A stretch of 64,000 nt of DNA from Nemertoderma westbladi (GCA_032718475.1 JAUCBJ010003734.1:62001-126000); one strand, 5' to 3'. Shown: positions 3,844-33,541, counted from the stretch's first letter. The notes: generated by a model not told the origin, from the sequence alone. Numbers and translations: made by a program.

Positions 3844-4213
3844 TGCCACATATCATCAAGGAGCGACAAACTATAAATATATACATCATCGTCGCTCTGA
3901 TGTATATTGTAGGCTTTAATTGTATATCCGGCTGGACTCATATACACATATAATCATATTTGTTCTAAAATCTATTGAAGGAAGTGAAGAAGGCGAAGGA
4001 GGTGATTGGCGAGACAAACCTGCGGGTTTGGCTTACTCCTTTCACCTACCTGAGCGATCACCAATTGCGATTGCATTTTTTATAATTAAGTAAATGTCCG
4101 AAATGAAAGAAATTATTACGTAATTTTATATTTAGTTTGATTATCGGCCTTTAAACGCAATAATATTTAGTTAACCAAATTCGCCTTATTAGATTGTTAA
4201 TTTGTAAATACAT

Positions 4214-6386
4214 TGATAAACAACCGCGACCTCTATACTAACAGCAGAACTGTTGAACAGACAAATACCCGTTAATATCCTTCTGTCAACCTAATGAGCT
4301 CTCGCCTAACCAATAAGACACAAAGACTGCTCTACCGTTAAGTAAAGGGGATCAGGAGCGTGATATTACTAAATTGTAAAGGTTGCTAAATACAAAACCG
4401 CTACTTACCGTTAGATGGCGCTAACCTGCCGTCCGCTAATATATTTTACTAAATTTACACAGCTCCTGCAAAATCGCTTGTTCCTTTCTCTACCGATCGC
4501 TCGATAGAGAGCTAACTGTTCGAATCTATGAGCCACGCGGGAATAACCAAAACAATAAACCCGAGTCGGCTCCCTAAGCTTACTTAAGACGAGTGCGAGA
4601 GGCCTTGCACTCAGAGTATTCTTACGCCTAATTCTATCACTATTAAAGCACGCTATTGCCTACGCCTTTTCTAATCGCGAATACTGGGGGTTCCCTAACG
4701 TAATGTGTGAATGCGAGAATATTTAAATAATCAAATGATACAGTATTTGTTTCTACGTGGATAATGCCGCTCTGGGTCTAAACTTGCCTGCCGCTGGCTT
4801 TAGGCCAGCTAATTACTAGCGTATTGTGCGTACCGAATAGTGCGATCTAGCTGATTGCCCGCTAATGCAAATAACCACTCAGCGTGAATAGTTTACAGTA
4901 CTCTAATTATTACCTTAGCTACTCTCCGCTATGCTGCGTACTAATTCTTAATTTTTTACTAATCAATTACAGTCACAAATATTTAACAGCGTACTAATTA
5001 CTAAGAGTTCCAGAATGCGTAATTCTAATTTATCACGCAACAGGTTTCGCTAGTAATAGCCTAAATTGCCGTATTACTTTGACCTAATCAGTAACTAATC
5101 GTTGTAACTAAGAAATAGAAATCAATCAAAGAGAAAAGGGCGCCTACCTAAACATTCACAATCATAGGCACACTTCAGTAACACACCAATCAGCGTCAGC
5201 AATCACAGTTCGCAATTATGCAGTTAACTACTGTATAGCCCACAATTGTGCGATTCACTATTCGTACTCCACACTCAACGTTGTAATACGCGCAGGCCTC
5301 TCCCGGATACATCTAGGCTTCCTAACTAACCCGATTCCTGCCCCCCTAATACTAAATAGAGACGAAACCTGGATCATCAGCCCCCTAGTTACTGTATCGG
5401 CGAATGGTCTGCGTGTTACAGTGCAAAATGCCCGCCCGCAACGGTGACCCCCCCGCCAGCGTTGCCCGTCTTTGAATCCTCCGCTCTCCCCTAGTCGCTC
5501 AACCCCCCGATGTGCCCACCGCCTACTGGCACCTTAGCCCTCCATCATGCTAATAGCTACCGTAGCGGCGCATGCAAAATCACAAAGTCTGACAGTCTCA
5601 GAAATCCCTTAGGATTATTGCGTAGAAAGGAATCACATAGAACCATTAATCAAAAGGTAGAAATTATAGTTCCGGTTGTAATTAGCAGTAATCGATAGGA
5701 TTAATTGAGAAACACAATCAAGAATAATCGCACTAGCAAATCATTTCGAGATATTAATCGAAAATAGCAAATTGCAGAAATACGCTAAAATATCCGTCAA
5801 AAGGTGAATAGGGACAGCTCAGCAAGTACAGGGGTGATAGAGATAGAGCTCTACCGGCACACCGCCAATTTATAGGTGATCCGAGTGGGTGATGCAATAG
5901 GGTGACTCAATCGCTCTCCTATTGGCTCTCCAGTCCGCGCTAGCATTAGACCAACCTGGAAGCAGTTAGTCCAATAAGGAGGCCGGATTGTAGCCCTATT
6001 GCTGCCCAAACCTCAAATTATTACCATATATGGTAATGGATCATATCCCTGGCTGCTGAATGGCCAGGACAGCGTCTCTATATGCTAGCCCTATTGATGC
6101 TAATATCAGCAAGCACAAAATCCAGGGTCCGACTAAACTTGCTACCCTGGAACTATCTACATATATCCTAATACAAAATTACGTAGGTAGGGCTACATAT
6201 TATACAAAATGGATGGATTCAAATATATGGGCGTTTTGGTTTCCCTATCTAAATATCACCTCGCTATTATATCTTATCTAAAGTATTATGCTGCACAACG
6301 GACTAATATTGCGTACAGTATAACGGACTAATATATTATACTGCATAATGACTAATAATGTGGATACAGCGCCATATACCGTAACA
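4214..6386 (-). repeat. 3' LTR of element B (2173 bp)
   Basis: Direct repeat of 21215-22994. Sense strand starts TGTTAC (6386) and ends TTTATCA (4214). Confidence 0.95.
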
Positions 6387-6393
6387 CCGCTCC
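6387..6393 (-). other. Polypurine tract of element B (sense GGAGCGG), preceded by a GGGAAA/TTTCCC hairpin
   Basis: Abuts the 3' LTR start. The same hairpin and GGAGCGG are conserved at 23161-23190 in element A. Confidence 0.7.
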
Positions 6394-7186
6394 AAGGGAA
6401 ATCATACAATGTTTCCCTCCAACTGTAGAAGAGTATAAGGTGATGTATACAAACAAAATAAATTTCTATAAATCCTACTATTTACAAAATATTGCTATAG
6501 ATATTGCATAATGAATTGCATACAAATTAAATTTACAAAATATTGTTTCTCGTTCGTTCTACATAATGATTACTACATACAAAATTAAATTTACAAAAAT
6601 ATTACTTCCTTTATTTATTTACAAATTGACTGTCTACCTATTGAAATGGAACATGGCTAGGACAATGTCCCCCATTTCCCATCTCAAATTAACGATCAAC
6701 ATTAACAAGATAAACTAAATATAAACGTATTTGAGGCTAAATTTTTAACTAAATTGCATTAAAGGCCGATAATCAAATTAAATATAAAATACGTAATAAT
6801 TTCTTTCATTTTCGGACTTTACTTAATTTCTTATAAAAAACGCAAATCATCTTGGTTTGATGATTGCTCAGGTAAGTGAAAGGAGTAAGCCAAACCCGCG
6901 GGTTTGTCTCCCCAATCACTTCCTTTGCCTCTTTCAATAAACTTTAGAGTAAATAAAGTCATATACACAAAATCAAATATAGTATAGGCTCAAAATCATA
7001 TTTCCAACGGACTACAAAGTAAAAGTATTTCCTTTCAATATTTTTGGCCTTCGAAAATAAAATTCTAAAATATGGATACGACTAGTGCATATGAGTCCAG
7101 TCGAATGATTGATCAAAACCTACAATATACATCAGAGCGACGATGATGTATATGTCTAGAGTCTGTCGCTCCGTGATATTATAGTC

Positions 7187-10100
7187 TCATCGGCTAGCTC
7201 CTGGGTCTCTCGGGCTCGCTCCCTTCTCCAGATACACCAGTCTACCCCCTGTAGACTCTGTTGACGGCGTCCGTGAGGCGTCACTCCCCGGAACCGGCGA
7301 CAATGTTCCCTGAGCCCCGACAGATTCCCGGCTGGTACTTCTCCCTCGGCCTCGTCCCAATTGTCGTGCTCCCGTGGTCGCTTCCGCCAACTCTTCCTTA
7401 TGCAATTGCACACGCGCTTTTTCCGACGCTCCCTGCGCCTTGCGCTGCAATCGCTGTGCTTCTATAATAGAGTGATAGTGGTCGTCCTTGACTTGACGCT
7501 TGTCTTGGACCCCTCCTCCTGGTTCCTTCCGCGAGCCTTGAGCTCCAGCGGTCGTCGCTGTGGTCGCTGCGATCCTCTGTTCCTGTATCCTCTCAGCGGT
7601 CAATGAACCCACTGGCACATGAGTCAACAAGAATTCGTTGCGGTATTGTATAGCCGCCATCCTCCAATCACCTCGCGCGCGTACCACTTTTCTAGTCTCC
7701 GTAAATACACCCTTCGTGATACGATCGCAAATAGCAACGAAGTTCCAGGTGTACTTGTTATCCATATTCAACTGTCTGAAGTATTCTCGGACTACGATAA
7801 CTCCAGTGTTCTGTGGAAGATCTTGAGCAGTTAGGATGAGTTCCTGATATTGTGGTAGCCATTGTAGATATGGCTCGTACGCAACATGTGATGGGTCTAC
7901 CGCCCAAAATCCATATCCCGCCTTAAATGGCAACCAACGCATCTGCGCTTGAATATGGTAGTCAGCCACACTCTCCCACTTATCTAACATCTCCCGAAGT
8001 AGGTTAGCGCTATGGTTTTGAAAGGAATCATCTTGCAGCTGACATCTCGCGCTACGATGTCCCTTTACCCCACAATATCCACATTGAGAAATGAAGACGG
8101 TGCACGTGTGAAACGAATGGTCGGTCTCATTACACCAACGACAGACCTTATGCGCCGCCTCTACTACCGCGTCGCACGACTTTAGATTGTGCCTTGTGCT
8201 GCCGCACAATTTGCACCTACGCGCTTGTGGAAACCAGGCCCTCTCGTATATGAGGTCTCCAATCGGTTTCGCACTTCCTTCCTTCCCAATGTCTAATACG
8301 ATGTCGTCCTCTCCGGTCAACGGTTGTCGATCCGGAACAAAGTAAACATCCTCGCCCTTGTCCTCTATCTCCAATATTTCCTCCCGCGTTCGTTTCGGAT
8401 ATGTCTTCTCCACCGGAAGATCTACTCCGAACACCTCTACTAACGTCTCCGACCAGCCCTCCTTAACAGGTCTATCAGCCTCTGAGTGGAAGGGAGTACC
8501 AAACCCGCGGGTTTGATTCCCGAACCACTTCTCCAAAGCTTCTGGCGTCGGATACTCCATCGACGGTCGGTCTCCCAAATTTCCGATGTTCTGTCGATAT
8601 ACTCCTTGGAATATCGCTAATCCTCTCCTAACCAATGACGTATTCTCTAACGATTGGTTGAAGAACGGGGTTAAGAATTGCTTCATCACGTCGGATTGGA
8701 TTCCCCCTTTCGAGCGAACGTATTGATCCCCTCCGAATACCAATGGATGACGCTTCAAAACTCGCGCAACGATATCCGCTAATAAACAAGTCACCATGTT
8801 CGACTCAAGCACCAAATAATATTGTAGCGACGCACGGGGTGGCGCGCAAATGTTCCAATACACTAACGCTTGCCGCTTGAAGTGGGATTTGAACTCCGCT
8901 CCCGGTGGCGTGTTGTATTCGCCATACACCTCCTCGTACTTCTTCTGCGTCTTTAACTTAAAGTCCCAATTATACAACAAGTGTGCTATAAAGCCCATAC
9001 CAGTCTTGGCAGAGTTGGGATACTCCCTATAAATTCCAATATCCTGTGCCCATAGCAACAATAGCTTGGTGTCGACAAACGGTCTCGGCAATCTATCTTC
9101 CAGATCAGTCATGGCGTTGAAGTCGCTCTCCAAATCGCTCTGGACTCCCGATCCCACCTTGACGTAATCTTGGTTGAGAATAGCCTCTCTAACTTTCCTG
9201 GGTAGCATCCTGGAGTCGATACACTCCGCTCCGTGCATACCTCCTCGCCTGCATACCTCCAAAATCTGCTCCCTAGGATCCTTCCCCTTCCGATATTGTG
9301 TCGTTATGATGGGCTCCGGTCTCTCTCGATCCGCCCTCACACGCATAAACACATGAGTCACACCATCGGCCGCACGAATTTGAATACACTTGCTGGTCAA
9401 ACATTCTTGATGGGACCCTCCTTCATTGTCGTAGAACATCACCCTCCAATCCTGCAGTGATTCCTCCGTTTTCCTCCACTGACGCTGAATCTCGTCTGAT
9501 GGGGTCCACATGCGCTCGATAGCCTTGTGGTCATCATATCGGGTATAAGAACCCTTCCTCCTCAGCCACGTCTGGTCTACCTCCTCGTCGTCTGGGAATG
9601 TAGCCACCGCGACCCATAACTTGATGTACTTATCCAACCATCCAAATAATTTACTCTCCTTCCCCGGAGCTCCAATCTTATCCAATGTGTCGTAATCTGT
9701 GATCTGCATTGGGACATCACGCAAGAACTTCGCGCATAAAACTTCCCGTAGACCGTCAACGTTCCAATGATCCGCCATTCTTACCATCGGCAAGAATCGT
9801 ATCGCTTCTCGCGACTCCGGATGATCTACTAATATCGCAGGTTCGGTGCCGTCGGAATAATACACAGGTCGGGGTTGAGATACGACCTGTGGAACAAATC
9901 CGGTCACTCTCCTTGTCTCCTCTTGATGTCTATCCGCGGTCTTATTATACTCCGCTATCCTATTCTCGAATAACTCTTTCGCCTTCGCCGCTCGCTCCTC
10001 CTGCCGCAACGCGTCTATGTCGTCCTGATGCTCAGGCGTGAGGCTTCTCGCTCGGTGAGGCGAAGTAAACGCAGTCCAGGGACTTGAGAGCTCCAAACCC

Positions 10101-10882
10101 GCGGGTTTGGTACCCGAGTCCCGTGCCGCTTCGCGCCGCGCCTCTAGATCCTTATAGGCTCGGTACAGCGAAATGGCCGCTGCCGTCTCTATCAAACTGG
10201 GTGTCGAACAGGGTTTAATCTCCGTATACGGATCTAATGTCGTAACGGTCGGCGTAATGGGTCTCGGAGGTCGCTTTCCGCTGAAGTCGATACTGATCAT
10301 CGGGTTGCTCATCGGGTAACCTCCCTCGTCGTATCTAAGGAACTGGTGAGCTGGACATCGCGTTAATATCGGTTCCGGATGTTGCTCGTCTAGTCGGTCG
10401 GGAATCGCCACGTCTTGCTTATTCATGCATTCACCACACTTGTAGAACAGCTTGTACACGCTGAAGACTTTCGGCGTCTCCTGATCCTCGCCTCGAGTCC
10501 TCCGGTACAGATGCATTCCGTCGAACTGATCTCGGACTGCAGGTAGAGGTTCTTCGTGTCGTAAATACATATTCATATGGTACAGTCGTGCGATCTCCTC
10601 ATCCGGGTCTGCACTAATGTCACATACGTCCAAAGCAAAGTCGTAGGGATACCGCATGCGATACTCTCTCCGCAAAACTTCCATCCGGTCCCCCAACGCT
10701 CTCATTCTTTCCCTCCGTAATTCCTTATCATAAGTCGGTTTATATTTTCCGTTTAGCTCCATCACGGACCGCCCATGGTAGTAAACGTTAGAGTCTTTAC
10801 ATCCTGGTCGCGCGAATGGTAGCTCCGCCTCCTCTCTGGCAGTAAATCCTCTGCGCGGTTGCGCTCTAATATCCTTCTCCAT
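7187..10882 (-). CDS. Accessory ORF2 of element B, ~1231 aa, unknown function; three CCHC zinc knuckles, CxxC...CxxH motif, RG-rich C-terminal tail
   Basis: Open for 3.7 kb. First ATG at 10882 (the track start at 10915 is TTG; the homologue in A starts at the equivalent position, 667). Knuckles CKLCGSTRHNLKSC, CRWCNETDHSFHTC, CGYCGVKGHRSARC. Many differences from copy A are synonymous. Confidence 0.88.
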   Translation of the reverse strand: MEKDIRAQPRRGFTAREEAELPFARPGCKDSNVYYHGRSVMELNGKYKPTYDKELRRERMRALGDRMEVLRREYRMRYPYDFALDVCDISADPDEEIARLYHMNMYLRHEEPLPAVRDQFDGMHLYRRTRGEDQETPKVFSVYKLFYKCGECMNKQDVAIPDRLDEQHPEPILTRCPAHQFLRYDEGGYPMSNPMISIDFSGKRPPRPITPTVTTLDPYTEIKPCSTPSLIETAAAISLYRAYKDLEARREAARDSGTKPAGLELSSPWTAFTSPHRARSLTPEHQDDIDALRQEERAAKAKELFENRIAEYNKTADRHQEETRRVTGFVPQVVSQPRPVYYSDGTEPAILVDHPESREAIRFLPMVRMADHWNVDGLREVLCAKFLRDVPMQITDYDTLDKIGAPGKESKLFGWLDKYIKLWVAVATFPDDEEVDQTWLRRKGSYTRYDDHKAIERMWTPSDEIQRQWRKTEESLQDWRVMFYDNEGGSHQECLTSKCIQIRAADGVTHVFMRVRADRERPEPIITTQYRKGKDPREQILEVCRRGGMHGAECIDSRMLPRKVREAILNQDYVKVGSGVQSDLESDFNAMTDLEDRLPRPFVDTKLLLLWAQDIGIYREYPNSAKTGMGFIAHLLYNWDFKLKTQKKYEEVYGEYNTPPGAEFKSHFKRQALVYWNICAPPRASLQYYLVLESNMVTCLLADIVARVLKRHPLVFGGDQYVRSKGGIQSDVMKQFLTPFFNQSLENTSLVRRGLAIFQGVYRQNIGNLGDRPSMEYPTPEALEKWFGNQTRGFGTPFHSEADRPVKEGWSETLVEVFGVDLPVEKTYPKRTREEILEIEDKGEDVYFVPDRQPLTGEDDIVLDIGKEGSAKPIGDLIYERAWFPQARRCKLCGSTRHNLKSCDAVVEAAHKVCRWCNETDHSFHTCTVFISQCGYCGVKGHRSARCQLQDDSFQNHSANLLREMLDKWESVADYHIQAQMRWLPFKAGYGFWAVDPSHVAYEPYLQWLPQYQELILTAQDLPQNTGVIVVREYFRQLNMDNKYTWNFVAICDRITKGVFTETRKVVRARGDWRMAAIQYRNEFLLTHVPVGSLTAERIQEQRIAATTATTAGAQGSRKEPGGGVQDKRQVKDDHYHSIIEAQRLQRKAQGASEKARVQLHKEELAEATTGARQLGRGRGRSTSRESVGAQGTLSPVPGSDASRTPSTESTGGRLVYLEKGASPRDPGASR

Positions 10883-11639
10883 TATGCCTCGCGTATATAC
10901 ATATATATATCCCAATAAGTGCCGTTACGTAACCAATTACACTGTGGGTAAATCAGTTAGATGTCGCCGAAAGACAGACCTCCCGAACCCCCCCGCCTTC
11001 CAGCAGTTCAGGTTCGACTCTCTAGATCCCGTCTCTTCCTAACTAACTATCCTCTAACCTATTCCCATGCATAGCGCAAAACTTTGGAGATAAACTGGCC
11101 GTGACCAACTCACTTTTTGATGCCCAAACTACTCCCATTACTCGTACTAAACTACAGTAGTTAGAAAGGACTATAGCCACAATACTCGACTATACCAAAC
11201 CCACAGGTTTGATAATCGAACATCACACATCCTGCAAACTACTGAGTGGGGTCCATGTATGCCTCTGGTGCTACTAACCTTTAGCACCTTGGTTGCACTG
11301 TTGGCACCAATCTGTGGAAGTTGCTAAACTCAATTTACACTCCTACGTAATATAGCCGTCACCATGGTTTCTAAATGCTATTTTCCAGGCTTCACGACTT
11401 TTCAAATTACTGTATATCTATAGACGAATTCTAAAACGCGTCTATACACAGCGTCTGGAATTGTCTTGGGTTCACTTTTCTAATTTTAAAATTTTTTAAT
11501 TTTCCAAAAATTTTTGAAAATAAAATTTTGTTTTGATACCCACTAGACAAAACTCAACGCAAATCACCACAACCCCGCTCCTATGCATTTCCTTGTATTT
11601 GCATACGAGGAATGCATACGAAGTGAGTTGCGTCCAACA

Positions 11640-14600
11640 CTAATTCTGTTTTGAGGCAGGAGACAAATTATAATCTCCCGTCTCGATACGTGTCTCCTCT
11701 AATAACACAATATCTTGGACCGGTCGGTCCAAGGTGTGTAAACCATTAGTTTTACACTTCTTTGGGTGCGGACACTTGCACCTAATTTTCACAGTGACTG
11801 TGCGCACTATGTTTTGCACGTCTGGGTGTATATGCAAGATCACTCCCGTCTCCCAATACTTTCTCTTGACAATAGGTTCGGTTATCAGTACGTAATCTCC
11901 CCTTTGGAGACTCCGAACCGTTTTGTACCACTTTGTTCTGGTAGATATGGTGGGAAGATAGTATTCCCGCCAATATTCCCAGAATGTGTACGCGACTAAT
12001 TGAGTCATTTTCCAGCTTTTACGACTATATAGGTCGGCACTAATGGGTTCTGATGCCGGCACAAGAAATGCTGGACTCTGCATTAGCAAATGATTCGGCG
12101 TTAATGCAACACCGTCTGGCAACATAGCTATCGGCCTCGAGTTTAGTGTATGCTCGATTTCAATGAAAGCTGTGACCAGTTCGTCGTCGGTAAGTTGTTT
12201 GTTCACAGGCAATGTTTTGGCAATGGCCTGCTTTACAGAGCGAACCAAACGCTCCCAACTTCCTCCTCTCCAAGGACTTTCTGGAGTATTAAATCTCCAT
12301 TCTACTCTTTGCGGCAAAAGTGCTGCAGAAATTTCCTTATTCTGTGCCGCTTTATGAGCCGCGTTCAACTCGCTATTCCCCCCGACAAAGTTTGTACCCT
12401 TATCGGAGTAGAACGCCTTTACTAGTCCTCTCCTGGCCATAAATCTCTTCAAGGCCAGGAGCAGAGATTTGGTCGACATGTCTGCCACACGCTCAATGTG
12501 TATGGCTCTACTAGCCATGCATGTCAGTAGCAGACCCCATCGCTTGTGGGTCAGCCGTCCACTCTTTGCTTCAATCGGACCAAAACAATCCACCCCTGTG
12601 TTCGTAAAGGGTGGGTCATATGCCTGCACTCTCGCTTCCGGGAGTTCAGCCATCTCCTGTTCCAATACTCTGGCGTTCACTCTCTTGCAAACCAGACAGG
12701 CGTCATACATGGTGCCGACTGCCCTGCTTGGCTGCAATAGAATGAATCGCTGTCTCGCTGCCGACAGACAGTGTAACTTTCCCGCGTGATGTAACCGCTT
12801 GTGTATATCCCATAGAATCGCTCTTTGCAATTCTATTGGGTGACTAGGGATTATCACTGGGAACCGAAACTGTGAGTTTATGTCGACAGTCTGGATTCTC
12901 GATCTATGACAAATCAAACCCTTATGGATTAATGGACTCCATTTTCTAAGGGGTTTATAGAGAACTGGTCGTTGAGCCGATAATAGATGGAATTCTTTCG
13001 GGAAGGCACACATTTGATAGTGTTTCAAATGCTTTAATTCCGCTTGATCAATCTCATCCTCTGTCAGAGGTTGTTTCAATTTCTGAATTCGCTCACTATT
13101 AGCGCTCGATGGTTCTCTCAAATGTTTCGAATGTTTTATACAAAGGTACGAAACGTATCGGCTTAACCACGCAGTTCTTTTACAAATTGTCAGCCAAGAG
13201 GCAGACGAATTTAGTAATTTGTCATAAATACTACATGGCTCTAATGCCAGCGACGGTTGTCCGCTAACTAATGGAAGTTTCGAATCCAAACCCGCAGGTT
13301 TGGAAACCAAAGGCTCCATTTTGTCGGTCATTTTCTGTCCGTCACTTACCAATTGTGACTGTCGTCTAGTCTGTAAGGGTGGTTTTACGTCGTAACTTAC
13401 CCTTCCGGACCTAGTCGTCACGTAAGTCTGTTGGTCTGACAGGTCTCCGGGCCGCTCCAATAACTCTCCAGGCCGCTCCAATGACTCTTCAGGCCGCTCC
13501 AATGACTTGAATTTGGCTTTAGACTTCGACTTAGAGACTTTCTCCACCTTGACTTCTGCATCTTTAGGCATCGGATTGGTCACTATCTTTAGTCGCTCTG
13601 GCCAATGTTCCTGTGTCCTCGTTAGAAAATCAGGTCCATGCAACCAAAACTCCTGCGACTCTTCCTGACCGAATTCCGCCGGCATTGCACCTCTCGAAGT
13701 TATGTCGGCCAGGTTCAACACTCCCGGACAATGTCTCCATTGTTCCTTCGTCGAAAAGTCGACGATCTGAGCGCGTCTGTTGGCCACAAATGTCTTTAGT
13801 GCAATATTGTCGGCCGCAATGTATACTAACACCAAGGATGCGTCTGTCCAATAGAATAAGGTCAATGTCGTGTCTAACTCCTCAATTATCTGCTTACTTA
13901 CCTCGACCGAAACTACAGCCGCCTGTAACTCTGCACGAGGGACAGTCATGTATTTGACCGGCATTGTCTTTGATCTAGAAGTCACAAAGGCCGTCTCAAA
14001 TTTGTCCTGACTTACCTCTCGGCGAAGGTAGGCTACCATACCAAAGCCGGTGTCACTTGCGTCACTAAATAAGTGGAGTTCGAGATCAGCTGGGAATACC
14101 AGCTGATTCGGAAAGTAGGAACGGGGTACATCTATATTTTTCAATAGATGCAACTCGGCTTCCCACTCCCTCCACTGCTTTGCATGTATAGGATATATTG
14201 GTTCGTCCCACTCTAAGTCGGACAACCAAATTTTCCTCATGCACGCTCGTGCCTGTAATATAACCGGACTGATAAAGTTCATCGGGGCAAATAGTCTACT
14301 TAAAGTCGATAAGCAAATTCTCTTTGTCAAAATTTTGTCTGGGCTACTGGGCTCAAATCTAACTCTTACCTGGAACTTATCTGAGTTCGGATTCCAAGCG
14401 AGTCCCAGTACTCGCGCCATGGGAATTGGTTCTACCCCCAATTCTATGTCTCCGCTCCCGCGATCTTTCACCGGGAACGACTCTAATATGGCCTCCGAGT
14501 TTGTAGTGAACTTGGTCAGAGGAAATCCCCCTGTAGCCAAGCACTCTTGCAGGCCGTGAGCCACTTCTATGGCTTGTTCCGCTGTGTCCTTGGACACCAA

Positions 14601-17600
14601 TCCGTCGTCCATGTAGAAGTTTCTCAAGATGGACTCGATCACTTCTACTGGATACTTACCAATCTGGGCTGTTGCCGTTTTCTTTAAAACAAACAGCGTG
14701 CCGTTTGGACTATCGCGGGCGCCAAATATCCTAACGTACATCTGGTATGTAACCACTGGGCCGGATAAGTCTTCATTCTCATACCAGAGAAAGCGAAGGC
14801 TATCCTGGTCTGCCTTACAGGCTCTTACCTGGTGGAACATCGCCTCGATGTCACAAGTAAATGCGAATCGCCGCTGTCTAAAATGCAACAGTATTCCAAT
14901 CAAATAGTTATTCAGGTTGGGACCATCCATCAACTCTGAATTCAGGGACATACCTCTATAGACTGCTGCGCAGTCGTTGACTACTCGGACTTTGTCTGGC
15001 TTGTCAGGGTGAGTCACATAGTGGTGTGGAAGGTAATAAGTCTGGTCAGTCACTAAGTCAGGGTCCTCTACCTTCCCAGCAAATCCCTTGGCAAAATAGT
15101 TGTTGATCTGGGCGCAATACTTCTCCCTAATGTTCGGATTCTTTAGCAACCGAGCCCTTACTCCGTTCAATCTTTTCAAGGCTAAGTTGTAGTTGTTCTC
15201 CAATTTAGGAGGTTGTCGACGCCACAACATTCCAACTTCAAAATGTCCAGTCGGTAGCAGACGTATGGTATCTTCCATCATCTCCAGCGACCGCTTCTCA
15301 TCAGTGGACATGGCTAGGTCATATCCACCGGGTTCCATTGCGTCCCTATCCAGCCATTCGACGGTTCTGGCTCCTGTCTCGAGGTCCTGGCGTATCAATT
15401 CCTTCTGTAACTCCTCCTCACTGTATTGGAAAATGTCTAGGTCTCGATATTTAGCCACTTGACCCTCCACTATGTCTGTATAAGTCAAAACGTTAGTCAA
15501 ATAAGTAGCGTGGGCCGCTGAACCAGACCCACGGGTCTGATAACAGTAGTCCTCGGGTTCACTATCTGTCCGGTCGTTATGAAGTGGTTCCGACAACCTA
15601 ACATTATCGGGAATCAACTCCTCGTCCGACTCGCTAAAGTCACTATAGTGGTCGATACAGGTCCTCCTAAACTCGTCTATGTCCGGTGGTTCTACTAACG
15701 GTGGTTGAGTTATAGGCTGTAATTCATCGTATCTGTTCATTGGCTTGTCGCCACCTGTAAACTCATAAGACATGGGTACTCTTGTATACCAACCTAGTAT
15801 GGTCCTATGGGCATGTGGTCCATTGACATGCGGCTCAGCTGGTCTCGTTTCCCATATCTGGTGTGCGATCAGCTGTTCTGCACCAATCAACATAGAAACA
15901 TTCCTATAACCTACCTGATGTCTGGGTATCCTGAGCTTGTCAAAATACTCCTGTGCTATGGGACTCATCGGCGGCACCTTACCTAACTGCCTGCCGAATC
16001 CCTTCATAGCTAGACACTTAAATCCGTCCAATGGCAAAGCTTTCCGTTCTTGTCGAGTGTGTTGGTCTCTCGGAAGTAGGGAGTCTAGTTCCACCGAAAT
16101 TCTGTGTCCCTTGAGGTCTCCTACCCCATGCATAGACTTCAACTCTATTTGGATCTCCTCGGCGTCCTGGAAGCTAGAAACAGCTCTCGCCACTTCTTCG
16201 TCGATATACGATAATGTGGACGCAGTGTCCAACATGACATATATTCGCTTCGATCGCTTATCGCCAGTGAGTTTCACCGGAATCACGCTAAATATTTCCG
16301 ACGTGGCCGATGATAGATACGTCCGCGCGCTGGTCGATGAACTATCCGCGGTGAAACCTTGGCAGGTCACCTCTCTCGCGCTCGACTCGCCATCCTCGTC
16401 CGACGAACCTGGTTGATAACCATCGTCCTGGATGCCAGTGTACGTATTCCTCCTTATCGATATGGGTTCTTTGCTCCCCTTCCTGTGAGGATTTCGCTGT
16501 AAGTAACGGTCCGTTGGGGTATGGAAATCCGCATGTAGCAACTTGTGATGTAGTCTGCCGCATTCCATGCATCCGTCCTTGCTGTTCGGGCACTGCCGCC
16601 GTACATGACCTGGCGCAAGACATGCCCAACAGGTGTCCAACGTCCGCACTTGAACTCTTCTCTGTTCCGAATTTAATTCTTTGAACCGTCTGCAACTATC
16701 CAACTTATGGTCGTCAGATCTTACCTCCTTTAGTAAACAGTATTGGCAACCTACAAATCCATCTGGCAACTCCTGTTGCTTTAACCTAGGTCTATCTAAC
16801 CGCTCACCTGACCATACTCGCGAGTCTGATCTAAAGGCTGGGGTACTCGAATTATATCTGTCTACTGAGTTATAAGTCACAGTGGTCCTGTCATCGTCAA
16901 AACTTACCATAGACTTACCGGTAACAGGTTTAGACTCTCTCATATTCTCCTCTGAGAAGTTTGATTTCATCTCTGCTACTGTGTCTGTGGCTATCATGTC
17001 ATGAATGTGCTGAAGTGTCAACACCTTACCTTGACCCTCCAACTTATTCTCTAATTTGCGCCATTTCTGTCGGTAACGCATGTTTAGACGTCTTATTACG
17101 CTTTTCAAAACTTCGGCGTGATCACCATGATGAGGTAGATTCACCGTCCTTAAGATGTCCAATGCGTTCGAAATAGCGTTCGCTAAGTTCAACAGCTCTA
17201 ACGGAGTTGTAATCCTTCCGCCCTTACCCAAGTCTTCCACTATCGACTGCGCCATCTTGGTTTTATTCCCGTAGATGTCGCTAAGCGTCTTCATCGCTAA
17301 CTCGAATGCTCTTTCATTGCCGACGAAATTATCAGCAATGGCTCTAGGTTCTCGATGGAGCATCTGAAGCAAATAGTTGAACTTCTCATTGGGAGAAAAG
17401 GTGCTGTTGGTTAGCTGCTCGTCGACATAGGTTTTGAAAGTCCTCCAGTGCTTATGGTTGCCCATAAACTTTTGGGGTTGTTGCGTCGGCAGTCCTTGCC
17501 TAGCAGCAAACTTACCTATGTCCCTAAGGGTTGCGTCGTTCCGGGTTAACAAATGGTTTAGTTCCGCAGGGTTATTAAGTCTGGTCCTTTCCCGGTGGTT

Positions 17601-20021
17601 CCAACTTACCTGCTCCGTGTCGGTCCTTCTTTCCTTATAGTTTCGGGACTTCTGACGTCTCATTTCTTCCTCTTCATCACTTGACTCGGTGTCAGTCCTT
17701 AGCGCTCGCGATGGTTTGCGCGCTGAGGCCCTGACCCAAGCGTCCTGAATAAATTTCTCGGCCGAATTTTCGAAATTGGGATTATGAATATTCGGGACAG
17801 GCGTCCTTACCTGAGGTCTATGTGGTATAGTCTCCTCCGATATGCGTACTCGTTGACTAGGCTGGACTTTATCTAACTCAGGCCTGCTAGGATTTGAATT
17901 ACTTCTTACCTGGGCTGCTTCCTTTAACCGTAGGTTACTAAGCATGTCCGTTATAGGTTGGATGTGCGGCGATATAGCTTGCGCTAAACTAGCACTTAAC
18001 TCATCCCTCGTAATAAATTCCTGGCTAGGGTTCTGTTGTATAGTCGGCTCTATCTGAGTAATCCGCTGTCTCTCATATGATCCCTCTTCCGGTTTAACCC
18101 GGAAGTTCTCCGTCGAACTGGGTCGGCGTTCCGTCCGCGTATTCCAAACCCGCGGGTTCGGTTCGCCCAATACTCGTCCCGTTGGAGTTTCTTCTCTAAA
18201 TTCTCCATTGTCTCGTTCGGTGTATAGTGGTGCGGTGTTCCGATGACGTGGATTCTGCGCGATAGGTGAAGCACTAATACCAACTGGCGTGCGATATGTA
18301 GGGAACGGTTTAGCGATCCGTGTACTCGTAATAGCTGGACCGGGTATAGGAATTCTGGTCGTCGTCGACTCGCGTATGGTCGGAGTTCTCGCTTCCTGTT
18401 CGGCCTTCTGCAGTGCGAACAGTTCTCGCAACTCTGTCCCTACACTCGCCCCACATTCTTCGATCATTCGCATCCCCTTCTCGGCGATTTCGTTCGCCTT
18501 CCTAGTCCGTTCTTCGCTCTCTAAACTTAATCTCGCACTTTCCAACTGCGCCAGTTTACGTTCTTCTTCCTCCCTTGCTCGTCTCGCTGCGCCCTCTTCT
18601 TCCACACGCGCCTTCTCTTCATACAACGCCCGTCGCTCCCTCTCGCGCTCAAGTTCGCGCTCCTTGCGCTCGCGTTCGAGTTGGAGTTCGCGTCTTCTTT
18701 GCTCGCGTTCCTTAGCTTCCCGTTCGCGTTCGCGTTGGAGTTGGAGTTCGCGTTCTTCGCGTTCGCGTTGGAGTTGGAGTTTGCGTTCGCGTTGGAGTTG
18801 GAGTTCGTGCTCTTCGCGTTCGCGTTCAAGTTGGAGTTCTCGTTCTTCCAGTTCGTGTTCCGCTTGCTCACGCTTACCTTTGTCTTCCAACTCTCGCAAC
18901 TTTGCGTCTAACTTACGTGTGCGCTCCCGTTCCCGCTCGGCCTCCTTCCGTGCTTCCGATGCACGCAAAACTTCCGCCTGTTGTTCGTCCAGTCGGCGTC
19001 TTCTCTCCTCCGCCGAGTTGTGAGAAACAAGGGATCTAGCACATATCACCTTCCCTCGCGCGTGACTAACCTGGGAATCGCCGCTGTCTCTGGATGCATC
19101 GTCGGGTGGAGTCAACGTCCTCTGTTGGATGTTCTCCGTCGTCGGTAGCACCTGGCCCGGTACCACCACTCCATTCTGCATCAGCCAGCTAGTAACTTCC
19201 CTTTGATACCTGCGCTCCTCCTTGTCTTGGATCTCTTCTCGCTCCACTAAGTCTCTCAACTCTGCGTCACTCACCTGAGTCGCCTGCACTTGTGATGCCC
19301 ATAGCAGCCAGTTCTCCATCCTAACTCGTCGGAATCGCTCCGATAACTCGCGGTGCTCCAACAGGGCTGCCAAAACCCTATCATAAATCCTCGTCGCCAC
19401 GTCGCTCGACTGAGACTCTACTGCCTTCTTCGCTAGGACTGCAAGCTCCTCCGTCTGCTTGAATAACGCTGAGTTATATCCTCTTCTAATCTCTACTAAC
19501 TCTACCCTCCCGATGTTCGCTGAATCTGCTAACATTTTCCTTACCTTGTCCGCCGTCCGAGTTATATGTCCGGCGTGCGCGCGAAGTTTCTTCTTTATCG
19601 CGATATCCAGTTCTCTCTCGCTTACCTGACTCACACTCGGTGGACTTGAAGGATTATTTCGGGAACTACGGGTACTCCTTACAGCCGTCGGGACCACGGC
19701 ACTTACCATACCCACAGGTCTGGAAACTGGGCTCCGGGCTCTCACTTCTGCTACACTACCCTCCCTATCACTCACCTCTGTCCGGGCTGCTGTACAGTCC
19801 TTCCTTACAGTAGCGGTAGGGGATCCTAATACTATTACTTGAGGTTGTTGTTCTTCCTCACTAGTCACTGTCTCGTCCTCCTGTTCACTTACGTCAGCGT
19901 CGCTCGCTGCGTCGTCATAGTCGGCATTGTCGTCAACAGTAATATTTACGCTATCGTCAGTCGGCGGTCCAGCCGCCGTCTCATAGCTGTCCTCTAGTGC
20001 CTCCTTGTCTGAGACACTCAT
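11640..20021 (-). CDS. gag-pol: BEL/Pao Gag-Pol polyprotein, 2793 aa, single intact ORF
   Basis: Coiled-coil N-terminus; BEL-type Cys/His cluster (CQYC..H..C, CWACLAPGHVRRQC, CMECGRLHHKLLH); protease LDTAS; RT YLPHH...DIEAMFHQV...YMDD; RNase H FSDAS/PRAEL/WTDA; integrase HHCC plus DCFGP, SDKGTNF, WERLVRSVK. Order PR-RT-RH-IN. Confidence 0.97.
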   Translation of the reverse strand: MSVSDKEALEDSYETAAGPPTDDSVNITVDDNADYDDAASDADVSEQEDETVTSEEEQQPQVIVLGSPTATVRKDCTAARTEVSDREGSVAEVRARSPVSRPVGMVSAVVPTAVRSTRSSRNNPSSPPSVSQVSERELDIAIKKKLRAHAGHITRTADKVRKMLADSANIGRVELVEIRRGYNSALFKQTEELAVLAKKAVESQSSDVATRIYDRVLAALLEHRELSERFRRVRMENWLLWASQVQATQVSDAELRDLVEREEIQDKEERRYQREVTSWLMQNGVVVPGQVLPTTENIQQRTLTPPDDASRDSGDSQVSHARGKVICARSLVSHNSAEERRRRLDEQQAEVLRASEARKEAERERERTRKLDAKLRELEDKGKREQAEHELEERELQLEREREEHELQLQRERKLQLQREREERELQLQREREREAKEREQRRRELQLERERKERELERERERRALYEEKARVEEEGAARRAREEEERKLAQLESARLSLESEERTRKANEIAEKGMRMIEECGASVGTELRELFALQKAEQEARTPTIRESTTTRIPIPGPAITSTRIAKPFPTYRTPVGISASPIAQNPRHRNTAPLYTERDNGEFREETPTGRVLGEPNPRVWNTRTERRPSSTENFRVKPEEGSYERQRITQIEPTIQQNPSQEFITRDELSASLAQAISPHIQPITDMLSNLRLKEAAQVRSNSNPSRPELDKVQPSQRVRISEETIPHRPQVRTPVPNIHNPNFENSAEKFIQDAWVRASARKPSRALRTDTESSDEEEEMRRQKSRNYKERRTDTEQVSWNHRERTRLNNPAELNHLLTRNDATLRDIGKFAARQGLPTQQPQKFMGNHKHWRTFKTYVDEQLTNSTFSPNEKFNYLLQMLHREPRAIADNFVGNERAFELAMKTLSDIYGNKTKMAQSIVEDLGKGGRITTPLELLNLANAISNALDILRTVNLPHHGDHAEVLKSVIRRLNMRYRQKWRKLENKLEGQGKVLTLQHIHDMIATDTVAEMKSNFSEENMRESKPVTGKSMVSFDDDRTTVTYNSVDRYNSSTPAFRSDSRVWSGERLDRPRLKQQELPDGFVGCQYCLLKEVRSDDHKLDSCRRFKELNSEQRRVQVRTLDTCWACLAPGHVRRQCPNSKDGCMECGRLHHKLLHADFHTPTDRYLQRNPHRKGSKEPISIRRNTYTGIQDDGYQPGSSDEDGESSAREVTCQGFTADSSSTSARTYLSSATSEIFSVIPVKLTGDKRSKRIYVMLDTASTLSYIDEEVARAVSSFQDAEEIQIELKSMHGVGDLKGHRISVELDSLLPRDQHTRQERKALPLDGFKCLAMKGFGRQLGKVPPMSPIAQEYFDKLRIPRHQVGYRNVSMLIGAEQLIAHQIWETRPAEPHVNGPHAHRTILGWYTRVPMSYEFTGGDKPMNRYDELQPITQPPLVEPPDIDEFRRTCIDHYSDFSESDEELIPDNVRLSEPLHNDRTDSEPEDYCYQTRGSGSAAHATYLTNVLTYTDIVEGQVAKYRDLDIFQYSEEELQKELIRQDLETGARTVEWLDRDAMEPGGYDLAMSTDEKRSLEMMEDTIRLLPTGHFEVGMLWRRQPPKLENNYNLALKRLNGVRARLLKNPNIREKYCAQINNYFAKGFAGKVEDPDLVTDQTYYLPHHYVTHPDKPDKVRVVNDCAAVYRGMSLNSELMDGPNLNNYLIGILLHFRQRRFAFTCDIEAMFHQVRACKADQDSLRFLWYENEDLSGPVVTYQMYVRIFGARDSPNGTLFVLKKTATAQIGKYPVEVIESILRNFYMDDGLVSKDTAEQAIEVAHGLQECLATGGFPLTKFTTNSEAILESFPVKDRGSGDIELGVEPIPMARVLGLAWNPNSDKFQVRVRFEPSSPDKILTKRICLSTLSRLFAPMNFISPVILQARACMRKIWLSDLEWDEPIYPIHAKQWREWEAELHLLKNIDVPRSYFPNQLVFPADLELHLFSDASDTGFGMVAYLRREVSQDKFETAFVTSRSKTMPVKYMTVPRAELQAAVVSVEVSKQIIEELDTTLTLFYWTDASLVLVYIAADNIALKTFVANRRAQIVDFSTKEQWRHCPGVLNLADITSRGAMPAEFGQEESQEFWLHGPDFLTRTQEHWPERLKIVTNPMPKDAEVKVEKVSKSKSKAKFKSLERPEESLERPGELLERPGDLSDQQTYVTTRSGRVSYDVKPPLQTRRQSQLVSDGQKMTDKMEPLVSKPAGLDSKLPLVSGQPSLALEPCSIYDKLLNSSASWLTICKRTAWLSRYVSYLCIKHSKHLREPSSANSERIQKLKQPLTEDEIDQAELKHLKHYQMCAFPKEFHLLSAQRPVLYKPLRKWSPLIHKGLICHRSRIQTVDINSQFRFPVIIPSHPIELQRAILWDIHKRLHHAGKLHCLSAARQRFILLQPSRAVGTMYDACLVCKRVNARVLEQEMAELPEARVQAYDPPFTNTGVDCFGPIEAKSGRLTHKRWGLLLTCMASRAIHIERVADMSTKSLLLALKRFMARRGLVKAFYSDKGTNFVGGNSELNAAHKAAQNKEISAALLPQRVEWRFNTPESPWRGGSWERLVRSVKQAIAKTLPVNKQLTDDELVTAFIEIEHTLNSRPIAMLPDGVALTPNHLLMQSPAFLVPASEPISADLYSRKSWKMTQLVAYTFWEYWREYYLPTISTRTKWYKTVRSLQRGDYVLITEPIVKRKYWETGVILHIHPDVQNIVRTVTVKIRCKCPHPKKCKTNGLHTLDRPVQDIVLLEETRIETGDYNLSPASKQN

Positions 20022-21214
20022 AGTCTAAATAATGTTTGCCTTCCGGCAAAATATCTCGCAAAAGTTCGAGGTATAATTATAATTTAACCGAAATACGGTC
20101 AAATTATTTGTCAAATAATCAGTTGGTCCAAATGTCAAATAAATTCACAATGCAATATTGTGAATTTAATGGGGTATAGTTATAGCAAATACTAGCACAA
20201 TATTTAAACAAAAATATTATTATATAGCTACTATATAGTATTAAATACCGGTATAGCACAAAATAACTTTGAATCTAATACAAAATATTCAAAATAAACT
20301 TGCTACCCGAATATTTCTAATTTTATATATATAGCTCTAATCAACGCAATTTTAATTTCAAATATTATATGTATCCACTAGCGCGTGGCTACATCTTCGG
20401 GTTGCGACTCTCTCTAACTCTCTCTCTAACTTGAGCGATTCAAAAAACCATGGCCGGCTAAACCTAAATATCCTAACTAATAAATTGAGTTCAGCTTCGC
20501 AGTTAAACAACCGGTAATTTTTTACTGCTTCCACAAACACAATGGTGCCAACAGAACAACTAACCTTGTTTGCTGTGAGATTCCACGTCCGCGTCCAAAG
20601 ATTCAGGCCCTTCGCTGATTGCAAACCGAACCCGCAGACCCACACGAACCCCAAACTCAGAAGTCCCGTCTTGCCATGTATCTCCAGATGGTATAAAATA
20701 ACTAAGCGGTTACCTAACATACCGGTACAAAACTCTAGAATTTTACAAAATAATTTTGACCGAAACTGAATTCTCGCAAACCTAGCTAAAATTTTCAAAA
20801 CTTACTAATTACAAATTGCCCTAAGGCCTAAGGAACTGCTGTATTCGCAATTAGCAAAAACGCACTACCGTACATCCACTGTATGCAGCACAGTAAGTAA
20901 AACAGTACACCAACCTAATAGCCTAATGATACTGTGTGTGGTACGGCAAAACAAATGTCCCTTCTACCGTACGCAGTAACAGCAATCAGCCTAATGTACT
21001 ACTGTACTATTGTACGCAGCCAATGAATACAGTAATCTAAACTAGTAGCCTAAAAGAATATATTCAATGTTCTACCGTACGCTAGCCTATAACAGTATAG
21101 CCTACAGCAGACGATCACGTGCTCCAACTTATTACTTAATACTGTGATACTACTAATCAGCCTAAGAATACACTATTGACTGCTGCAAGCAACAGCCAAT
21201 AATGCGCGTATTAC

Positions 21215-22994
21215 TGATAAACAACCGCGACCTCTATACTAACAGCAGAACTGTTGAACAGACAAATACCCGTTAATATCCTTCTGTCAACCTAATGAGC
21301 TCTCGCCTAACCAATAAGACACAAAGACTGCTCTACCGTTAAGTAAAGGGGATCAGGAGCGTGATATTACTAAATTGTAAAGGTTGCTAAATACAAAACC
21401 GCTACTTACCGTTAGATGGCGCTAACCTGCCGTCCGCTAATATATTTTACTAAATTTACACAGCTCCTGCAAAATGCAAATAACCGCTCAGCGTGAATAG
21501 TTTACAGTACTCTAATTATTACCTTAGCTACTCTCCGCTATGCTGCGTACTAATTCTTAATTTTTTACTAATCAATTACAGTCACAAATATTTAACAGCG
21601 TACTAATTACTAAGAGTTCCAGAATGCGTAATTCTAATTTATCACGCAACAGGTTTCGCTAGTAATAGCCTAAATTGCCGTATTACTTTGACCTAATCAG
21701 TAACTAATCGTTGTAACTAAGAAATAGAAATCAATCAAAGAGAAAAGGGCGCCTACCTAAACATTCACAATCATAGGCACACTTCAGTAACACACCAATC
21801 AGCGTCAGCAATCACAGTTCGCAATTATGCAGTTAACTACTGTATAGCCCACAATTGTGCGATTCACTATTCGTACTCCACACTCAACGTTGTAATACGC
21901 GCAGGCCTCTCCCGGATACATCTAGGCTTCCTAACTAACCCGATTCCTGCCCCCCTAATACTAAATAGAGACGAAACCTGGATCATCAGCCCCCTAGTTA
22001 CTGTATCGGCGAATGGTCTGCGTGTTACAGTGCAAAATGCCCGCCCGCAACGGTGACCCCCCGCCAGCGTTGCCCGTCTTTGAATCCTCCGCTCTCCCCT
22101 AGTCGCTCAACCCCCCGATGTGCCCACCGCCTACTGGCACCTTAGCCCTCCATCATGCTAATAGCTACCGTAGCGGCGCATGCAAAATCACAAAGTCTGA
22201 CAGTCTCAGAAATCCCTTAGGATTATTGCGTAGAAAGGAATCACATAGAACCATTAATCAAAAGGTAGAAATCATAGTTCCGGTTGTAATTAGCAGTAAT
22301 CGATAGGATTAATTGAGAAACACAATCAAGAATAATCGCACTAGCAAATCATTTCGAGAAATTAATCGAAAATAGCAAATTGCAGAAATACGCTAAAATA
22401 TCCGTCAAAAGGTGAATAGGGACAGCTCAGCAAGTACAGGGGTGATAGAGATAGAGCTCTACCGGCACACCGCCAATTTATAGGTGATCCGAGTGGGTGA
22501 TGCAATAGGGTGACTCAATCGCTCTCCTATTGGCTCTCCAGTCCGCGCTAGCATTAGACCAACCTGGAAGCAGTTAGTCCAATAAGGAGGCCGGATTGTA
22601 GCCCTATTGCTGCCCAAACCTCAAATTATTACCATATATGGTAATGGATCATGTCCCTGGCTGCTGAATGGCCAGGACAGCGTCTCTATATGCTAGCCCT
22701 ATTGATGCTAATATCAGCAAGCACAAAATCCAGGGTCCGACTAAACTTGCTACCCTGGAACTATCTACATATATCCTAATACAAAATTACGTAGGTAGGG
22801 CTACATATTATACAAAATGGATGGATTCAAATATATGGGCGTTTTGGTTTCCCTATCTAAATATCACCTCGCTATTATATCTTATCTAAAGTATTATGCT
22901 GCACAACGGACTAATATTGCGTACAGTATAACGGACTAATATATTATACTGCATAATGACTAATAATGTGGATACAGCGCCATATACCTTAACA
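21215..22994 (-). repeat. 5' LTR of element B (1780 bp; lacks a 392-bp block present in the 3' LTR)
   Basis: Matches 4214-6386 except for the missing equivalent of 4475-4866, one C in a C-run and about five substitutions seen by eye. Confidence 0.95.
22476..22645 (-). promoter_or_regulatory. Candidate LTR (U3) promoter: CArG box, CCAAT boxes, AP-1, C/EBP-ATF site, TATA
   Basis: Palindrome ATTACCATATATGGTAAT at 22628-22645, TGACTCA, TGATGCAAT and sense TATAAAT at 22476-22482. The same cluster is at 5868-6037. Motif match only. Confidence 0.55.
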
Positions 22995-32361: not shown

Positions 32362-33199
32362 GTTTGCCACAATAATGTAGGTTGCGTTTGGGTAAGTTTA
32401 CATTTGCCACAATAATGTAAGTTCTGTATGTGTAAGTTTACCTCATCAATGTAAGGTTGTGTAAGTGTACGTTTACCACAATATTGTAGGTTGTAAATAC
32501 TGTAAGTTTACCTCATTAATGTAATGTTGTGTAAGTGTAAGTATTCCTCAATAATGTAAGGTTGTGTAAGTGTAAGTTTGCCACAATAATGTAGGTTGCG
32601 TTTGGGTAAGTTTACATTTGCCACAATAATGTAGGTTGTGTATGTGTAAGTTTACCTCATCGATGTAAGGTTGTGTAAGTGTACGTTTGCCACAATATTG
32701 TAGGTTGTAAATACTGTAAGTTTACCTCATTAATGTAATGTTGTGTAAGTGTAAGTTTTCCTCAATAATGTAAGGTTGTGTAAGTGTACGTTTGTCACAA
32801 TAATGTAAGGTTGTGTAAGTGTACGTTTACCTCATTAATGCTGTAATTTTGTTCAAGTGTAAGTTTTTCTCAATAATTTAAGGTTGTGTAAGTTTAAGTT
32901 TTACACAACAATGTAGGTTGTGTAAGTGTACATTTGCGTTTGCCACAATAATGTAAGTTTGGGTAAGTGTACATTTGCCACAATAATGTAGGTTGTGTAT
33001 GTGTAAGTTTACCTCATTAATGTAATTTTGTTCAAGTGTAAGTTGTTCTCAATAATTTAAGGTTATGTAAGTTTAAGTTTGCCACAATAATGTAGGTTGT
33101 GTAAGTGTACGTTTGCGTTTGCCACAATAATGTAAGTTTGGGTAAGTGTACATTTGCCACAATAATGTAGGTTGTGTATGTGTAAGTTTACCTCATTAA
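32362..33199 (-). repeat. Inverted block of the 34-35-bp satellite
   Basis: Reverse complement of the same monomer. 32362-32755 mirrors ~42328-42725, including rare variants. Confidence 0.93.
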
Positions 33200-33541
33200 G
33201 CTGAAATTATATACCGGTATTCTGTAATTAATTCTAGTCTATAATTATACCTATATATACTATAAGTGTAAGCTGTATACTGGTATTCACAGTAGGCTTA
33301 TTATATATTTATATATATTTGCGCTGAAATTATATACCGGTATTCTGTGATGAACCCTAGTCTGTAATAATACTTATATTATATACTATAAGTGTATACC
33401 GGTATTCTAATATATTGTATATAACACGTTACACTGAGTAACGGTATCGGTAATTAATTACTAGGCTTATAGTTGATACTGAATTACTAGACTTGCTTTA
33501 ACTGTAGTTATAGTAGTAGGCATTCAACTGTACAAACAAAC

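Follow-up and report, generated by a model that had tools for sequence, protein, structure and literature searches.

A young BEL/Pao element nested in a decayed relative

We analysed a 64,000-nucleotide stretch of the Nemertoderma westbladi genome (GCA_032718475.1, JAUCBJ010003734.1:62001-126000; hereafter the window, with positions counted from its first letter), in which a long terminal repeat (LTR) retrotransposon, element B, carries a second open reading frame (ORF2) after gag-pol and an 18-bp palindromic motif that recurs through both genes. Element B is inserted, in opposite orientation, in the 3' untranslated region (UTR) of a decayed relative, element A (junctions 4209-4213 and 22995-22999). 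The main components are as follows.

4214..22994, minus strand: element B, full-length BEL/Pao LTR retrotransposon, 18,781 bp, with a 5-bp target duplication (TACAT) on both sides
21215..22994, minus strand: 5' LTR of element B, 1,780 bp, without a copy of the motif
4214..6386, minus strand: 3' LTR of element B, 2,173 bp, without a copy of the motif
11640..20024, minus strand: gag-pol of element B, intact frame of 2,794 codons
7187..10882, minus strand: ORF2 of element B, intact, 1,231 amino acids
1..4213, plus strand: element A, decayed and internally deleted relative of B (77% nucleotide identity), resuming after 22999

The gag-pol frame encodes DUF1759, a zinc knuckle, Peptidase_A17, an H2C2 integrase and DUF5641. 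The presence of Peptidase_A17, DUF1759 and DUF5641 within this single frame, together with direct LTRs, TG...CA ends and the 5-bp target duplication, assigns the element to BEL/Pao. The LTR pair shows five mismatches, with ca. 390 bp of the 3' LTR missing from the 5' LTR, and the CpG observed/expected ratio of element B is 1.07. Contigs matching its internal region numbered 23,235 and 10,169 in two sequencing runs, one of which may be the source of the window, and the family is therefore abundant, although summed contig depth does not equal copy number. Element B is a young, intact and abundant BEL/Pao retrotransposon. Among the best 120 of 2,156 matches, the nearest Pol relatives were 34 to 42% identical, and those that are named come from marine invertebrates and fish; a metagenome scan for BEL pol loci confirmed none.

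In element A, the integrase region is missing, as are ORF2 residues 451 to 621, and what remains of its ORF2 has stops and frameshifts. Synonymous divergence between the two elements is 0.63 per site. CpG decay is seen in A, where 110 of 284 CpGs of B read TG or CA, and its direction is symmetric: 55 TG to 55 CA at the CpGs of B and 20 to 20 in the converse comparison.

An 18-mer recurs through coding and noncoding sequence

An earlier note, made from the sequence of the window, had listed nine occurrences of the palindrome, six in B and three in A, and all nine lie exactly where it placed them, with zero to three mismatches to CCAAACCCGCGGGTTTGG. The three in A are indeed orthologous to sites in B. 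A strand-neutral scan of the window for the 18-mer, allowing up to five mismatches, added three sites within B, at 15523 and 19706 (four mismatches) and at 16812 (five). Outside the two elements it returned no site with four or fewer mismatches and three with five; nor do the other LTR elements of the window contain a 14-mer in three copies spaced by more than 300 bp.

6864..6936, minus strand: 3' UTR hairpin, a conserved island (core 6890-6907); loop CGCG in B, whereas UGCG prevails in family contigs
8485..8530, minus strand: ORF2 hairpin (core 8499-8516); loop CGCG
10079..10124, minus strand: second ORF2 hairpin (core 10093-10110); loop CGCG
11181..11226, minus strand: pol-ORF2 intergenic hairpin (core 11195-11212); loop UGUG
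13272..13317, minus strand: pol-linker hairpin (core 13286-13303); loop UGCG
15509..15554, minus strand: additional firm gag-pol site (core 15523-15540); loop CGUG, with an A-U to G-C arm swap
16812..16829, minus strand: doubtful site, five mismatches, at chance level; loop CGCG
18130..18175, minus strand: gag site (core 18144-18161); loop CGCG, one G-U pair
19706..19723, minus strand: probable site near the gag start, four mismatches; loop UGUG, one G-A mismatch
1422..1467, plus strand: ortholog in A of the 10093 hairpin; three broken arm pairs, 10-bp lower stem
2473..2518, plus strand: ortholog in A of the 8499 hairpin; loop TGCA
4000..4045, plus strand: ortholog in A of the 3' UTR hairpin; loop TGCG, with a compensatory change of A-U to G-C in its lower stem

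When the codon order of both ORFs of B was shuffled 2,000 times, the mean site count was 0.05 at four or fewer mismatches and 0.41 at five or fewer, so that the sites at 15523 and 19706 are probably real and that at 16812 is doubtful. A covariance model trained on the six B and two of the A sites, the E-values of which are rough, recovered from outside its training set 15509-15554 (E=3e-7) and the site at 1422-1467 in A (E=6e-4); it scored 19706 at E=0.43 and did not recover 16812. We therefore refer below to eight accepted B sites, the six original ones plus 15523 and 19706, leaving out 16812.

Six of these eight lie in coding sequence, where the motif occupies all three codon phases (2, 1, 1 and 0 for the four originally listed, with the peptides that the note had given). 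Synonymous-codon shuffles with the peptides held fixed (n=1,000) produced at most two coding sites within one mismatch, compared to the four observed, which upholds the suggestion of selection on the nucleotide sequence. Neighboring sites are 1.1 to 2.6 kb apart, a spacing of ca. 1.8 kb that is more even than expected (coefficient of variation 0.27; P=0.004 for seven sites and 0.001 for eight). Between A and B, third codon positions are identical at 29 of 39 sites within the two ORF2 hairpins and at 581 of 1,009 elsewhere.

The motif seems to be private to this family. Peptides that it would force occurred twice in 128 related proteins versus 1.85 expected, so that neither BEL elements nor the ORF2 homologs carry it as a rule. 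Among viral contigs, 32 matches fell in 32 different contigs, none of which had two, and Rfam covariance models run against positions 1-25500 gave no match at E≤1. A candidate site in the 5' UTR near 20626 was dropped, as its fold is unlike that of the motif.

The sites behave like RNA hairpins on the sense strand

Departures from the palindrome run in one direction. On the sense strand, the loops of the eight B sites read CGCG (four), UGUG (two), UGCG (one) and CGUG (one), which amounts to six C-to-T changes and no G-to-A. In the arms, G-U pairs occur four times and A-C pairs never; besides these there are two purine mismatches and a single change from A-U to G-C. Including 16812 would give one more G-U pair and one more mismatch. 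Thus, read on the sense strand, each of the 10 transitions away from the palindrome either turns an arm pair into G-U or leaves the loop as YGYG (two-sided p ca. 0.002; ca. 0.03 for the 6:0 count at the six original sites). A symmetric dimer should accept both directions equally, and the 10:0 bias, set against the 55:55 background of CpG decay, points to an RNA hairpin rather than a dimeric DNA-binding site. The CGCG core named in the earlier note is found at four of the eight sites, but the commonest loop of the 3' UTR site in family contigs is UGCG. There, across 6850-6950, a change of C to U at the first loop position is the sole variant listed at ≥1%, at 74, 91, 90 and 31% of depth in four runs; these represent at most three samples, at 80% likeness some of the contigs may come from other sites, and a variant close to the end of a contig goes unlisted. 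Loose ends of contigs cluster at 6856-6876 and 6932-6949, indicating that in diverged copies the match is confined to the hairpin, as it is in A.

The flanks, which had been described as unrelated, are not. Between 6890 and 8499, identity is 88% over 33 nucleotides (nt) and 84% over 45 nt, and the sequences beside the palindrome can pair below it into a bulged stem-loop. Over nine sites, this pairing was best with a 2-nt 3' offset (33 of 54 pairs), where the null distribution maximized over offsets has its 99th percentile at 31 and its 99.9th at 34. Shuffling the flanks only, folds at least as stable were found in 24 of 300 shuffles at 6890, 33 at 8499, 15 at 10093, 19 at 11195 and 5 at 13286 (p=0.02 to 0.11 for each), so that the lower stem is supported for these five 3'-most sites only. 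The hairpin at 11181..11226 has a predicted folding energy of -17.3 kcal/mol on the sense strand versus -9.7 on the antisense strand. Compared by eye, none of the GCM, Runx, Grainyhead and EBF motifs accounts for the lower stem.

Comparison with A adds one double compensatory change and two changes between G-U and Watson-Crick pairs that are consistent with wobble. The palindrome at 2487 in A is perfect, as the earlier note had remarked, but owes this to two CpG transitions in a decayed copy; given that 110 of 284 CpGs of B read TG or CA in A, it is weak evidence for symmetry. Taken together, these patterns make it probable that the sites are RNA stem-loops on the sense transcript of element B. 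Two separate hairpins with a CACG loop were also seen, one of 10 bp in the pol-ORF2 spacer (11089-11134) and one of 7 bp near 14700.

ORF2 joins a predicted exonuclease-like domain to zinc knuckles

Compared with its counterpart in A, ORF2 has a dN/dS of 0.076, indicating purifying selection, and it has no transmembrane or hydrophobic segment typical of an envelope protein. Two parts of it could be assigned by profile.

8738..9451, minus strand: DEDD 3'-5' exonuclease-like domain (EXD2/WRN type), ORF2 residues 478 to 715
8042..8215, minus strand: three CCHC zinc knuckles (Lin28/nucleocapsid type), ORF2 residues 890 to 947

No homolog was found in a word-indexed set of 5.8 billion sequences, by single protein or by profile, while a HMMER search of 1.84 billion representatives retrieved seven (E from 2e-10 to 2e-4), in whose alignment an exonuclease-like part is held in common along with a knuckle cluster. 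Their clusters are named only "hypothetical protein." These seven (P0001 to P0007) form an unnamed family that combines a DEDD exonuclease with CCHC knuckles, three or four in number, and has a conserved F-E-x-F-A-D-x-G motif; all are singletons or pairs on contigs of 2.5 to 13 kb, and P0001 has two knuckle modules. A metagenome scan with P0006 found nothing, and ORF2 was not seen in the other BEL elements of the window.

Against the PDB, the domain profile matched the EXD2 exonuclease (E=2e-7) and, weakly, WRN (E=0.04), and the ORF2 profile matched the knuckles of Lin28 and nucleocapsid as well as the CCHC-domain protein 7C45, which we take to be a trypanosome RNase D. On these profiles, the domain is predicted to belong with the DEDDy fold of the EXD2/WRN/RNase D group. 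The Atlas label DNA_pol_A_exo1 (scoring 0.85 on the whole ORF2 and 0.92 on the domain, 161 features being shared) is a lead in the same direction, not proof. Active DEDDy enzymes have Asp-x-Glu in Exo I, Asp in Exo II and Tyr-x3-Asp in Exo III, a set that ORF2 does not show. Four of five homolog parts keep the Exo I D-x-E, the fifth being without the region, and this motif aligns to F512/R514 of ORF2; D583 of Exo II is kept, and the Exo III position reads Y689/E693. Because of the Exo I substitution, the domain is likely to be catalytically inactive, judging by its residues. A less likely register would place Exo I upstream, at D485-x-E487, in a region that is missing from A. The N-terminus carries a CxxC...CxxH motif. 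Two weak phmmer matches of ORF2 to rotavirus VP4 in the PDB (E of 0.06 and 0.5) were taken as chance.

Other features of the elements and the window

Several further observations concern the body of the elements. The 5' LTR is not followed by TGG; in its place, at 21155-21214, is a 16-bp hairpin with sense-strand G-U pairs. A short inverted repeat, GGGAAAC...TTTCCC, immediately precedes the weak polypurine tract and is conserved in both A and B (6390-6420 and 23150-23190). Within Gag, positions 18600-18870 encode a Glu/Arg-rich low-complexity repeat, probably a coiled coil, and the 5' UTR shares with the intergenic region a 12-nt inverted match that is no better than chance (E of 0.8). Some family contigs have internal deletions (9010-10992 and 10407-10737) that remove parts of ORF2, so that nonautonomous derivatives of the family exist. 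The 3' LTR of element A lies at about 23190-25050 and is ca. 70% like that of B. Farther along, two inverted arms (30233-33140 and 42330-45466), 96 to 100% complementary and partly made of a 35-bp minisatellite, enclose a broken second BEL element (33491-39980) for which no LTR pair was found.

What might read the putative hairpins

We favor a model in which the 18-mers would be the tops of one kind of RNA stem-loop, with an upper stem of 7 to 9 bp and a C-G-closed YGYG tetraloop, often completed by a 2-nt 3' bulge and a lower stem. Recurring about every 1.8 kb on the sense transcript, these stem-loops would be bound by the ORF2 protein of the element itself. By analogy, its knuckles might read the two invariant loop guanines, as the knuckles of Lin28 and nucleocapsid read exposed loop guanines, and the probably inactive nuclease fold might grip the bulged stem. 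Loaded at regular intervals, ORF2 could mark the ca. 17-kb intronless RNA as the element's own, a mark that may serve export, protection from RNA surveillance or transport; Rev acts on HIV RNA in a comparable way. ORF2 is preferred as the reader for its knuckles and its fold of the Egalitarian type, and since sites also occur in ORF2 and the 3' UTR: with three sites there, an ORF2 message would carry them too. For the gripping fold there is a precedent in Egalitarian, which binds bulged stem-loops of 40 to 65 nt via a DEDDy fold, without the need for catalysis (10.1101/2025.08.03.668247). Overall, we give a probability of 0.38 to ORF2 being the reader of the hairpins and handling the long intronless RNA of the element. 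The fuller scenario is more tentative, namely, that a captured exonuclease-knuckle protein was made into a dead-nuclease RNA reader of the Egalitarian or EXD1 kind, and that its hairpin, placed at 1.8-kb intervals across both genes, is a private tag by which the RNA escapes host surveillance or reaches the germline.

A number of observations weigh against ORF2 as the reader or against parts of the hairpin model. The partnership, already proposed in the earlier note, is plausible, but its link rests on co-occurrence in one family, as A and B share ancestry, and Gag has CCHC knuckles as well. ORF2 on its own has no Pfam match, its exonuclease assignment depends on alignments of 15 to 21% identity, two AlphaFold models were poor (pLDDT of 44 to 45) and gave no Foldseek match at E≤0.001, and its N-terminal 480 residues could bind DNA. 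With respect to the hairpins, the flank-only shuffles were not significant at 15523 (141 of 300), 16812 (186), 18144 (123) and 19706 (288); the local minimum-energy fold at 18144 prefers another structure in which the tetraloop is not formed; and folding z-scores at several sites are equally strong on the antisense strand. The decayed element A breaks three arm pairs at 1436 and has a loop G-to-A change at 2487. Finally, the six original sites alone are not unusually even in their spacing (P=0.25).

All the RNA-level evidence also applies if the hairpins are dispersed packaging signals, read by the zinc knuckles of Gag, with even spacing helping to fold and enclose a very long genomic RNA and ORF2 playing a separate part. 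Gag does carry a CCHC knuckle, the element is 18.8 kb long, and scattered stem-loops with a short loop motif, spread over coding and noncoding RNA, drive the assembly of single-stranded RNA viruses (PMC5699041); on predicted structure, element B likewise has multiple stem-loops with a common loop motif across its genomic RNA. Those viral signals, however, are degenerate and read by coat protein (PMC5699041), while B has seven to nine near-identical 18-mers. Sites in ORF2 and the 3' UTR would not discriminate against a separate ORF2 message, assuming that there is one, and other BEL elements with a similar Gag show no such repeat. We consider packaging by Gag unlikely, if still the main competitor.

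The earlier note preferred binding sites for a dimeric protein on double-stranded DNA, comparable to the VANC proteins of VANDAL elements; the N-terminus of ORF2 or a host factor could fill this role. An 18-bp palindrome that is perfect or nearly so, with CpG at its center, suits such sites, as do the CxxC...CxxH motif and the weak flank pairing at four sites, and CpG decay shows that the host methylates copies, while B stands at an observed/expected ratio of 1.07. VANDAL elements resemble B in combining an element-specific repeated motif with an element-encoded accessory protein (PMC5735166). However, VANC21 recognizes a 9-bp motif in double-stranded DNA, in dense, same-orientation, noncoding tandem repeats (PMC5735166), and the sites of B show no such arrangement, being sparse, mostly coding, strand-biased hairpins accompanied by a protein with RNA-type domains. 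The 10:0 bias, the nonpalindromic loop that is commonest in the family at 6890, the extended lower stems with a compensatory change and the lack of a site in either LTR all run counter to the DNA interpretation, and we regard it as improbable.

A host export, localization or stability protein could also read the hairpins, ORF2 being unrelated. The RNA-level evidence applies here too, and in size and bulge the hairpins are like host localization signals, one of which occurs in the I factor retrotransposon. Nevertheless, the motif is missing from the other elements in the same host window, nothing in Rfam matched positions 1-25500, and the strict conservation of arm sequence is unlike Egalitarian-bound signals, which have little sequence in common (10.1101/2025.08.03.668247); a host reader appears distinctly improbable.

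Multivalent RNA-RNA dimerization, in which palindromes pair with their twins on a second genomic RNA as kissing loops or an extended duplex, is in our judgment very unlikely. The 18-mer is self-complementary over its full length, every YGYG loop can pair with every other by G-C or G-U, and oskar has the core hexamer CCGCGG as its kissing sequence (PMC11567897). But the predicted loops are 4 nt, with CC/GG paired, and do not expose a 6-nt Watson-Crick palindrome at all sites; loop U occurs at four of eight sites and in most family contigs at 6890, and a UU change designed to abolish the pairing of oskar does so (PMC11567897). Of the options in the earlier note, RNA hairpins fit better than a dimer on DNA; plain dimerization through palindromic loops is weakened by the UGCG, CGUG and UGUG variants. 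A neutral origin of the sites from a small insertion or from gene conversion within the element, suggested by the 84% likeness of 6890 and 8499 over 45 nt, is largely refuted: the sites occupy all three phases in the two intact ORFs without disturbing the frame, have been retained in A and B despite a synonymous divergence of 0.63 per site, lack target duplications and are evenly spaced.

Relation to known systems and significance

Like its kin in BEL/Pao (Belpaoviridae), element B has a single gag-pol frame, TG...CA LTRs and a 5-bp target duplication; unlike them, it has 2-kb LTRs, a length of 18.8 kb, a second ORF of 1,231 amino acids and the hairpin set. HIV offers a parallel in Rev/RRE and Tat/TAR, where an accessory protein encoded by the element targets that element's own RNA by way of a structured cis site, although HIV has one such site per genome and protein folds unrelated to ORF2, whereas B has an evenly spaced array. 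A close protein parallel is found in bdelloid rotifers, where the Juno and Vesta LTR elements and the Athena/Terminons carry a DEDDy ORF3 with intact acidic residues (DEED) and of unknown function (PMC5408684). Both are extra ORFs after pol with a DEDD-type 3'-5' exonuclease fold and no transmembrane segment; compared by description only, ORF2 differs in belonging to a BEL element and in its likely dead Exo I, three CCHC knuckles and long N-terminus, and the accessible text on the rotifer elements describes no hairpin or stem-loop (PMC5408684).

Egalitarian, EXD1 and Exuperantia use the DEDD fold as an RNA-binding module, in the case of Egalitarian on bulged stem-loops such as the K10 and I-factor signals, but these are host proteins and the signals have little common sequence (10.1101/2025.08.03.668247); the ORF2 profile, moreover, matches EXD2 and WRN and not Egalitarian. 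The four loops of B fit the YNMG/YNUG pattern of the YNHG tetraloop in domain d of the enterovirus oriL, which is bound by a viral protein (PMC5633025), with the differences that the second loop position is always G in B and that the elements are unrelated. Searches of the open literature turned up neither a BEL element that carries an exonuclease-knuckle ORF nor an LTR retrotransposon with evenly spaced hairpins.

The extra ORFs of LTR retrotransposons, DEDDy ones included, have been without a shown function (PMC5408684), and element B unites a candidate protein with a precise, repeated candidate RNA site. If the model holds, the two would constitute an orthogonal protein-RNA pair, and evenly spaced hairpins written across gag, pol and ORF2 in every frame would reveal the way in which an intronless RNA of such length is managed.

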